Position numbers and translations under genes: made by a program. From the NCBI GenBank assembly GCA_022782605.1, contig JALFMW010000225.1:1-24441 (forward strand): 24,441 bases of DNA, read 5' to 3'. The stretch comes from Clostridium sp. Lineage in GTDB: Bacteria > Bacillota > Clostridia > Peptostreptococcales > Peptostreptococcaceae. The notes below the pieces were generated by a model. The model was not told where the DNA came from. It made no database searches and saw only the letters and a list, made by a program, of their open reading frames with translations. Shown piece after piece: positions 14,610 to 14,846 of the stretch (its first letter is position 1; each line of letters begins with the position of its first letter).

Positions 14610-14846
14610 ATGATAAGTATGAAATCAATTTTTGTAAAAATTAATGGAATTACAGATGCAACTACCTTATGTAAAAAAGCTTCAGTAGTGGATGGAGACA
14701 TTGAAATAAGAAAAGGTCGTTGGTGTGTTGATGCCAAGTCTATTATGGGTATTATGTCAATAGACTTATCAACAGGAGCAACCGTTGTATATCCAGAAGA
14801 TGCTAAAGAATTTGAAGATTTTATTAAGAAATTTGAAGCAAAATAA
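14610..14846 (+). CDS. HPr-fold phosphocarrier-like protein lacking the catalytic His15 (Crh-like); the Ser46 region is conserved
   Basis: Aligns with Bacillus HPr: GITDATTLCKKAS against GIHARPATVLVQTAS (His replaced), and AKSIMGIMSIDLSTGATV against LKSIMGVMSLGIAKGAEI. Immediately follows the RNA ligase (SD AAGGAG). Confidence 0.5.
   Translation: MISMKSIFVKINGITDATTLCKKASVVDGDIEIRKGRWCVDAKSIMGIMSIDLSTGATVVYPEDAKEFEDFIKKFEAK

Follow-up and report, generated by a model that had tools for sequence, protein, structure and literature searches.

In Firmicutes, the phosphocarrier protein HPr (PtsH) is phosphorylated on Ser46 by HprK/P, and CcpA contacts HPr through Ile47, Met48, Met51, the phosphorylated Ser46 and the β1-α1 turn (PMC10287919). 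Crh of Bacillus subtilis, an 85-residue protein found in the Bacillales, shares the HPr fold and lacks the phospho-accepting His15; it has Ser46 in a KSIMG loop together with the hydrophobic residues of helix 2, and its active-site loop is of full length, with Gln15, Arg17 and Pro18. Here we analysed a 24,441-nucleotide stretch of Clostridium sp. DNA (assembly GCA_022782605.1, contig JALFMW010000225.1; hereafter the window), in which a 78-residue open reading frame (ORF) at 14610..14846 on the + strand follows the gene of a phage RNA ligase. We find that this ORF encodes a histidine-less protein of the HPr fold, that it belongs to an unnamed family of short proteins from Clostridia and their phages, and that the gene is optional cargo among RNA-repair genes; more tentatively, we suggest that the protein may act on host signalling.

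HPr Fold without the Active-Site Histidine

The HPr-like protein matched the Pfam model PF00381 (PTS-HPr) with E = 2.7e-8 and 34.2 bits, above the gathering cutoff of 23, over profile positions 18-60 of 81 only. In a phmmer search against Protein Data Bank (PDB) sequences, the HPr chain of 1rzr, a complex with CcpA, gave an E value of 2.3e-6 and Crh one of ~4e-4, so that the protein is less similar to Crh than to HPr. An AlphaFold2 (AF2) model built from nine homologs (pLDDT 91.4, pTM 0.79) has the topology β-α-β-β-α-β-α, which is the order of HPr, with strands at residues 4-9, 32-35, 38-41 and 57-62 and helices at residues 14-25, 45-49 and 66-75. When this model was compared with the PDB using Foldseek, ranks 1-38 were all HPr or Crh and rank 39 was NPr, with TM scores of ~0.60-0.75 for most matches. 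The top matches by sequence and structure were Firmicutes HPr entries (1rzr, 3ihs, 2fep and 3oqm), whose Ser46 loop is near-identical to that of the window's protein. Both the profile search and the structure prediction that a preliminary description of this DNA had put forward as checks therefore bore out an HPr open-faced sandwich. The same description had the protein aligning with HPr across both conserved regions; the alignment is significant in the Ser46 half and not in the His15 half, as the HMMER alignments begin at residue 16-17.

The translated ORF contains no histidine anywhere. Codons 10-16 (K-I-N-G-I-T-D; 14637..14657, + strand) form a shortened β1-α1 loop and the N-terminus of helix 1, and replace the His15/Arg17 active-site loop of HPr. 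In MAFFT alignments this loop is ~3 residues shorter than that of HPr, the gap lying at G13-I14-H15 relative to both HPr and Crh, and helix 1 begins at residue 14 in the AF2 model; the equivalent of Arg17 is also missing, the aligned residues being T15/D16. Across the family described below, position 15 is N, T, D or E and position 16 is Asp in 68-83% of the proteins. The earlier view that the catalytic His15 had been replaced is thus correct as to the histidine and too simple as to the change, which is not a point substitution. Because the His15/Arg17 loop is deleted or replaced, the protein is predicted to be unable to carry phosphate as a phosphocarrier of the phosphotransferase system (PTS), and by known chemistry it cannot be expected to take phosphate from Enzyme I.

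The regulatory half of HPr has been retained. Codons 43-50 (KSIMGIMS; 14736..14759, + strand) correspond to the Ser46 loop and helix 2 of HPr, and in both HMMER and MAFFT alignments K43-S44-I45-M46-G47-I48-M49-S50 pairs residue by residue with HPr K45-S46-I47-M48-G49-V50-M51-S52. Three of these residues, I45, M46 and M49, are identical to the CcpA-contact residues Ile47, Met48 and Met51, and Ser44 is invariant across the family; the loop is indeed intact, as had been claimed. Loss of His15 together with retention of the Ser46 loop therefore suggests that the protein would act only in a Crh-like manner, through the surface formed by helix 2 and the serine.

Neither of the two named groups can accommodate the protein. 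We rejected membership of HPr (PtsH) because the protein, which is also shorter, has no His15 or Arg17 and scores below the curated cutoffs of the NCBIfam HPr models (NF010352, 31.3 against 110; TIGR01003, 27.9 against 47.9; NF010354, 32.1 against 123), although the general Pfam domain model is passed. Membership of Crh was rejected on similar grounds: whereas Crh has the intact β1-α1 loop with Arg17, the loop is ~3 residues shorter here and without that arginine, the NCBIfam HPr models give 28-32 bits against cutoffs of 48-123, the length class is 75-78 rather than 85 residues, and both taxon and genomic context differ, Crh coming from the Bacillales and the short histidine-less proteins from Clostridia and their phages. 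The Crh-type signature named in the preliminary description holds as an analogy, in that the HPr fold, the absent histidine, the serine loop and the helix-2 hydrophobics are shared, and does not hold as an assignment; the protein is a Crh analogue, not a Crh member.

A Short Histidine-less Family of Clostridia

To delineate the family, a profile of the nine closest homologs was searched in protein clusters at 50% identity with a threshold of E <= 1e-3. It returned 3,169 cluster representatives, nearly all of 73-80 residues. When a broader profile was used in a word-index search, the clusters at 90% identity numbered at least 7,919, with a typical member of 76 residues. Two giant proteins that headed the profile search, P0009 (2569 residues) and P0020 (2258 residues), contain 20 and 6 weak stretches, respectively, at profile positions ~11-62; they are probably repeat or composition artefacts and were left out of the family analysis. 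The start of P0009 resembles adhesin-type repeats. Family members occur on bacterial contigs of up to 2.9 Mb and carry the label 'HPr family phosphocarrier protein' in NCBI, JGI and UniRef, in Ruminococcus, Oscillospiraceae, Marasmitruncus and Eubacterium. When one genome per species was scanned, at least 538 stretches matched, and the 80 loci that were kept all belong to Clostridia or Bacillota.

Conservation was counted in 153 family members aligned with MAFFT. The equivalent of Ser46 is present in 153/153, Gly47 in 148, Asp41 in 136 and Gly36 in 135, while none of the 153 has an equivalent of His15 or Arg17 and the three-residue gap falls exactly at HPr G13-I14-H15. The family core motif, G-[RK]-[YFW]-x-[IV]-D-[AG]-K-S-[IL]-M-G-x-x-S-[IL]-D, reads G36-R-W-C-V-D-A-K-S-I-M-G-I-M-S-I-D52 in the window, and homologs at 37-97% identity retain the residues that define the fold and the motif. 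The ORF is therefore a clear, well-supported member of this unnamed family. The short histidine-less proteins of bacterial genomes (for example Ruminococcus CDD53786.1 and those of Oscillospiraceae) are like the window's protein in length class, loop deletion and core motif, and unlike it in the C-terminal third, which typically reads ...LDLSKPxxLxIHSDD..., and in a far more rigid core: the 19 residues G36-R-Y-x-[IV]-D-A-K-S-I-M-G-I-F-S-L-D-L-S are conserved to 90-100% at most positions. A core so close to invariant implies one conserved partner.

The bacterial copies lie in core-genome territory and not in prophages. At 37 of the 71 bacterial loci compared for context the gene has as its divergent neighbour a MiaB-family radical-SAM methylthiotransferase, past which follow IreB, RuvX and RNase J; the opposite flank holds either a 2-thiouracil desulfurase with RNase R or a DUF4364 protein. 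The RNA and tRNA enzymes beside these copies may simply reflect conserved core synteny. In one Oscillospiraceae metagenome-assembled genome (MAG; L055), a canonical HPr with His15 (GMHIRPAG), PtsI and the histidine-less protein are encoded as separate genes of one co-oriented cluster, and ptsI lies within 6 kb in 8 of the 80 bacterial loci. It follows that the histidine-less proteins are paralogs existing alongside true HPr, with some genomic linkage to the PTS. Tandem histidine-less genes were seen in another Oscillospiraceae MAG (L060, 4841-5376), and a fused two-copy protein of 157 residues (P0013) also exists; by analogy with Crh, for which a dimer has been described (PMC3724859), such copies hint that the functional unit may be a dimer.

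The protein is less singular than the preliminary description took it to be. The family comprises at least 7,919 clusters, mostly of Clostridia chromosomal genes, and the exact protein is already annotated in NCBI (MCI7206618.1, 'HPr family phosphocarrier protein [Clostridium sp.]'); what stands of the novelty is that family and phage clade are uncharacterised. Our literature searches found nothing on histidine-less HPr paralogs, on phage-encoded HPr or on HPr in RNA repair, the single match to 'HPR + RNA ligase' being the hairpin ribozyme, and no match to the HPr-like protein was obtained in PHROGs or PADLOC. New here are a widespread, uncharacterised branch of HPr-fold proteins without the histidine and the phage clade within it; the fold and domain themselves are already known.

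Copies in Large Phages

Relatives are encoded at 162 viral loci of IMG/VR, mostly on contigs of 80-195 kb, and group into 39 clusters at 70% identity. Seventeen of these share the C-terminal motif [VE]-Y-P-E-D-A-x-x-F-E-x-[FY]-[IL]-x-x-F, which we named YP-type, with Y61 conserved to 90%, P62 to 95%, A65 to 84% and F68 to 97%. The window's protein is of this type, ending in V60-Y-P-E-D-A-K-E-F-E-D-F-I-K-K-F75 (codons 61-75, YPEDAKEFEDFIKKF, at 14790..14834 on the + strand). The motif was found in 0 of the 72 members examined from bacterial genomes, and every informative YP-type context examined was a phage; on these alignments and contexts, a clade seen only in phages is well supported.

The remaining 22 viral clusters resemble the bacterial type and occur in various surroundings. 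Two of them, with 39 loci, share a context of YspA-SLOG, HPr-like gene, ThyA, DHFR and, further on, NrdD; others adjoin ThyX or a polynucleotide-kinase-like (PNK-like) kinase, and several contexts are unannotated. At seven loci of a phage lineage distinct from that of the window (L012-L014, L036, L038, L154 and L161) a bacterial-type gene lies directly upstream of RlaP (PF10127), an enzyme that adds nucleotides to damaged tRNA 3' ends (PMC12776372), and these phages carry a Thg1-like gene, 58-61% identical to that of the window, 6-7 kb downstream. In cultured Enterocloster phages the HPr-like gene is accompanied by a cell-wall hydrolase and RecA. The protein of one of them, PMBT24 (WDQ45469.1, 'phosphocarrier protein HPR'), and the BFVD entry A0A8S5S213 belong to the same histidine-less family, come from phages of gut Clostridia and have automatic names only, and the PMBT24 genome paper makes no mention of its 'phosphocarrier protein'. 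Unlike the window's protein, they fall in the bacterial-like subfamily and lie in other contexts, none adjoining an RNA ligase. It is well supported that large phages of Clostridia hosts carry copies of the family in many lineages.

Optional Cargo beside an RNA Ligase

The window's gene starts 11 nt past the stop codon of the RNA ligase gene, in the same orientation, which agrees with the placement given in the preliminary description. The ligase itself (13366..14598, + strand) is a 410-residue DRB0094-type enzyme with matches to PF09414, the PHA02142 OB domain and phrog_968 (7.8e-51). To see how far the two genes travel together, as that description had suggested, we collected 80 of 239 phage ligase loci with ligases 51-65% identical to the window's, 78 of which had 1.5 kb or more of sequence past the ligase. 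An HPr-like ORF (family profile E = 1e-23 to 1e-30) is encoded in only 5 of the 78, its start always lying between -9 and +84 nt from the end of the ligase gene. In most of the others a Zn-finger gene follows ~115-140 nt past the ligase, then a kinase and a phosphoesterase, and several carry other inserts of 1-3.7 kb in the gap between ligase and Zn-finger gene. The conserved module is therefore ligase, Zn-finger protein, kinase and phosphoesterase, and the HPr-like gene occupies a variable slot.

A wider comparison gave the same picture. The ligase family is found in 321 GenBank phage records, mostly with Gram-negative hosts, and the HPr-like gene in 7, of which 6 are Enterocloster phages, with no overlap between the two among the matches listed. 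In the complete PMBT24 genome, which contains the HPr-like gene, tblastn at E <= 0.01 detected no homolog of the ligase, kinase, phosphoesterase, Zn-finger, Thg1 or RlaP proteins, and at the bacterial loci examined the family members do not adjoin ligases. Taken together, these counts exclude an obligate role in ligation and speak against the suggestion that the protein is an accessory subunit of the ligase; a lineage-specific, modulatory role in RNA repair may exist. That the gene is optional cargo in the slot between the RNA ligase and the Zn-finger, kinase and phosphoesterase genes is well supported.

Possible Function and Alternatives

We propose that the HPr-like protein would act as a non-catalytic regulatory mimic of its host paralog, with the helix-2 face K43-S44-I45-M46-G47-x-M49-S50 binding host partners of HPr-type proteins. 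The most plausible partner would be HprK/P, towards which Ser44 could serve as a phospho-acceptor or as a pseudo-substrate or decoy. Carbon and energy signalling would in this way be re-tuned during infection, with no role for the protein as a subunit of the RNA ligase. Judged from the sequence, a hijack of HprK and CcpA signalling is plausible, and canonical co-repression with CcpA is less likely because the β1-α1 turn is altered and Arg17 is missing. We are highly confident of the identity of the protein and of its status as optional cargo when these are taken alone; the whole explanation, including the host-signalling mechanism that we infer, is tentative and has in our estimate a little less than an even chance of being right.

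Several observations weigh against a host-signalling role. The β1-α1 turn, which forms part of the CcpA interface, is shortened and has neither His15 nor Arg17. Vibrio HPr retains Ser46 though Vibrio has no HprK/P (PMC10287919), and a conserved Ser46 does not prove phosphorylation, as this residue also N-caps helix 2. Ser44 is present in 100% of both types, but the core around it is relaxed at several positions in the YP-type clade relative to the bacterial type (Arg37, 41% versus 90%; Ile45, 44% versus 90%), and the YP-type clade has its own conserved residues (A24, V27, G29, Y61, P62, A65 and F68); together, these features may point to a phage-specific partner. Finally, for 16 of the 17 YP-type clusters the ligase and/or the Zn-finger, kinase and phosphoesterase genes are no more than 1.6 kb away, and other phage copies adjoin RlaP or a PNK-like kinase, so that a functional tie to nucleic-acid metabolism may exist.

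This last point leads to the explanation that the protein is an accessory factor of the phage RNA-repair module, binding the ligase, the Zn-finger protein, the kinase or the phosphoesterase and modulating tRNA repair in the sub-lineage that carries it. The proximity of the YP-type clusters to repair genes persists despite divergence to ~37-55% identity, the gene runs in the same direction as the ligase and, of the two, only the HPr-like gene is followed by a terminator-like hairpin, and in two loci (L003 and L134) it lies a few bases upstream of the Zn-finger and kinase block with no ligase nearby; the non-YP copies next to RlaP or the PNK-like kinase in other phages and the clade's own conserved C-terminal surface would fit such a role as well. 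However, 73 of the 78 related ligase loci lack the gene; with the Zn-finger gene right behind the ligase in such loci, the repair module evidently works without it. The GenBank counts and the PMBT24 genome argue in the same direction, as do the large phage groups that have the gene with ThyA/DHFR/NrdD or ThyX and the bacterial members that are not beside ligases, and the synteny itself may go back to a single old insertion passed down in one family of collinear phages. We therefore consider an accessory role in RNA repair unlikely. Another explanation has the P-loop kinase and the calcineurin-type phosphoesterase next to the gene acting on Ser44, instead of or besides RNA ends, which would make the protein the substrate in a private phospho-switch. 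Protein Ser/Thr phosphatases are members of the calcineurin-type superfamily to which the neighbouring phosphoesterase belongs, the kinase has its top NCBIfam match in the L-seryl-tRNA(Sec) kinase model, and the HPr-like, Zn-finger, kinase and phosphoesterase genes form a tight block without the ligase in L003 and L134. Yet kinase, metallophosphoesterase and ligase make up a classical Pnkp-type RNA-repair set, the kinase matching PNK/Pnkp models; most phages with the kinase and phosphoesterase pair lack the HPr-like gene, and many phages with the gene, like all bacterial loci examined, lack the pair. A switch of this kind is very improbable.

A true Crh-like co-repressor mimic, phosphorylated by HprK/P and binding CcpA to switch catabolite repression, would account for the identity of Ser44, I45, M46 and M49 with HPr Ser46, Ile47, Met48 and Met51, and for the presence of Crh and HPr, including the CcpA-complex chains 1rzr and 1zvv, among the sequence and fold matches. 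It is at odds with the three-residue shortening of the β1-α1 turn and the loss of His15 and Arg17, which, going by the title of a study by Horstmann et al. from 2007, reportedly both take part in CcpA signalling, and with the low NCBIfam scores next to a Bacillus-type Crh of 85 residues and intact loop; we give it little credence. Equally doubtful is the idea that the whole short histidine-less family is a distinct, unrecognised signalling adaptor of Clostridia coupling energy or carbon status to nucleic-acid metabolism, the phage versions gating tRNA repair and dNTP synthesis. Such an adaptor would work through its invariant Ser, perhaps helped by the conserved Asp at the N-terminus of helix 1 as a built-in mimic of phospho-His, and it would explain why phage copies so often lie beside ligase/PNK, RlaP, ThyA/ThyX and NrdD and bacterial copies beside a MiaB-family enzyme, RNase J and RNase R. 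That the ORF is a non-functional remnant or arose by chance is suggested by its small size only. An identical protein recurs in 487 blocks of the sequence collection (420 contigs of up to 149 kb), homologs as distant as 37% identity keep the motif residues, and the gene has a good ribosome-binding site and a confidently predicted fold, so that for practical purposes this explanation is refuted by conservation. The remaining probability falls to functions not yet imagined.

Returning to the regulatory mimic, the wider interest of the family lies in its size and labelling. Thousands of proteins of gut Clostridia are labelled 'HPr family phosphocarrier protein' though they lack the histidine that carries the phosphate, and they form a coherent and very strongly conserved paralog family. 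Its repeated presence in large phages suggests that it pays a phage to manipulate, while it infects, the pathway in which the family acts. Should HprK/P or CcpA prove to be the partner, Clostridia would have in this family their counterpart of Bacillus Crh, and phages would have in their copies a means of rewiring the catabolite control of important gut anaerobes. At the level of the window the gene is a passenger in an RNA-repair operon and not a new ligase subunit, and nothing here amounts to a new principle, the HPr domain having already been recognised by database annotation.

Expression Signals and Neighbouring Genes

Reading of the sequence placed a Shine-Dalgarno motif, AGGAG, at 14599..14603 (+ strand), 6 nt upstream of the ATG at 14610. 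A second in-frame ATG at 14619 (M4) corresponds to the start position of most family members, and the true start could be either. Directly past the stop codon, a hairpin at 14845..14879 (GGGAGAA-AATA-TTCTCCC, extendable to 15 pairs) is followed by TTTTATTTT; the terminator scan listed it on the - strand (14878..14845), RNAfold gave -20.2 kcal/mol for the 89-nt stretch 14844-14932, and equivalent hairpins are present in two related phage loci (L004 and L128). By its sequence, the hairpin with its T-tract would be an intrinsic-terminator-like site. Upstream of the next gene, TATGATATAAT at 14889..14899 (+ strand) resembles an extended -10 box, a resemblance to consensus only, and the same box is found downstream of the HPr-like gene in L004, L125, L127 and L128; the promoter scan, with 57 sites against 46.8 +/- 7.3 expected, is uninformative here. 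Hairpin and promoter-like box thus bracket the slot that holds the HPr-like gene. In the related phage L125 a 177-nt spacer (6824-7000) separates ligase and HPr-like gene, and a 181-nt stretch containing it has a very stable predicted fold (-53.3 kcal/mol); no Rfam family reached its gathering score in this stretch, and the spacer may encode a small RNA or serve as a regulatory leader.

Downstream, a 104-residue protein (14933..15247, + strand; weak match to phrog_8801, 2.7e-3) has by inspection a lipoprotein-signal-like N-terminus, MKKKIVALLGITLLSFNLFGCGK, with a lipobox Cys. Most related ligase loci lack its gene and have the Zn-finger gene immediately behind the ligase, which makes the gene of the 104-residue protein a second variable cargo in the same slot; the putative lipoprotein may be a moron of the superinfection-exclusion type. 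The conserved module then resumes on the + strand with the 97-residue Zn-finger protein (15251..15544; phrog_1257, 1.5e-12, and synteny), the PNK-like P-loop kinase (15541..16041; AAA_33 Pfam 2.3e-15, phrog_505 2.1e-22, TIGR04075 Pnkp 3.1e-12), a Cys-rich ORF of 60 residues (16043-16225) and the calcineurin-type metallophosphoesterase (16245..16835; Metallophos_2 2.9e-9, phrog_547 5.2e-44). From these matches, kinase and phosphoesterase are best read as split Pnkp-like healing functions, with the phosphoesterase as the putative phosphatase half.

The RNA-centred island of the window holds more than these genes. It includes a Thg1-like 3'-5' nucleotidyltransferase for tRNA 5'-end repair (11031..11879, + strand; PF04446 3.8e-26, phrog_4717 3.7e-79), a second metallophosphoesterase (3328-4077), PIN-PhoH and RNase H, and, at its start, five tRNA genes at 535-1543 (Pro-TGG, Trp-CCA, Gln-TTG, Arg-ACG and Cys-GCA), on all of which ARAGORN and Rfam agree. 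Megablast of the region against GenBank phages gave no match, and the phage of the window, a large gut phage, is known from metagenomes only. A 235-residue protein (5049-5756) has a helix-turn-helix of the CodY type (PF08222, 3.7e-8). CodY is a nutrient-sensing global regulator in Firmicutes, and besides the HPr-like gene the phage may thus carry another gene directed at the metabolic regulation of its host. Also part of the island, upstream of the RNA-repair genes, are the genes of a 495-residue DUF2828/DUF7788 protein (1561-3048) and an 816-residue protein with a major-vault-protein (MVP) shoulder domain (PF11978; 6453-8903); the latter is 63-69% identical across related phages, and a vault-like or ribonucleoprotein-like pair is unusual in a phage.

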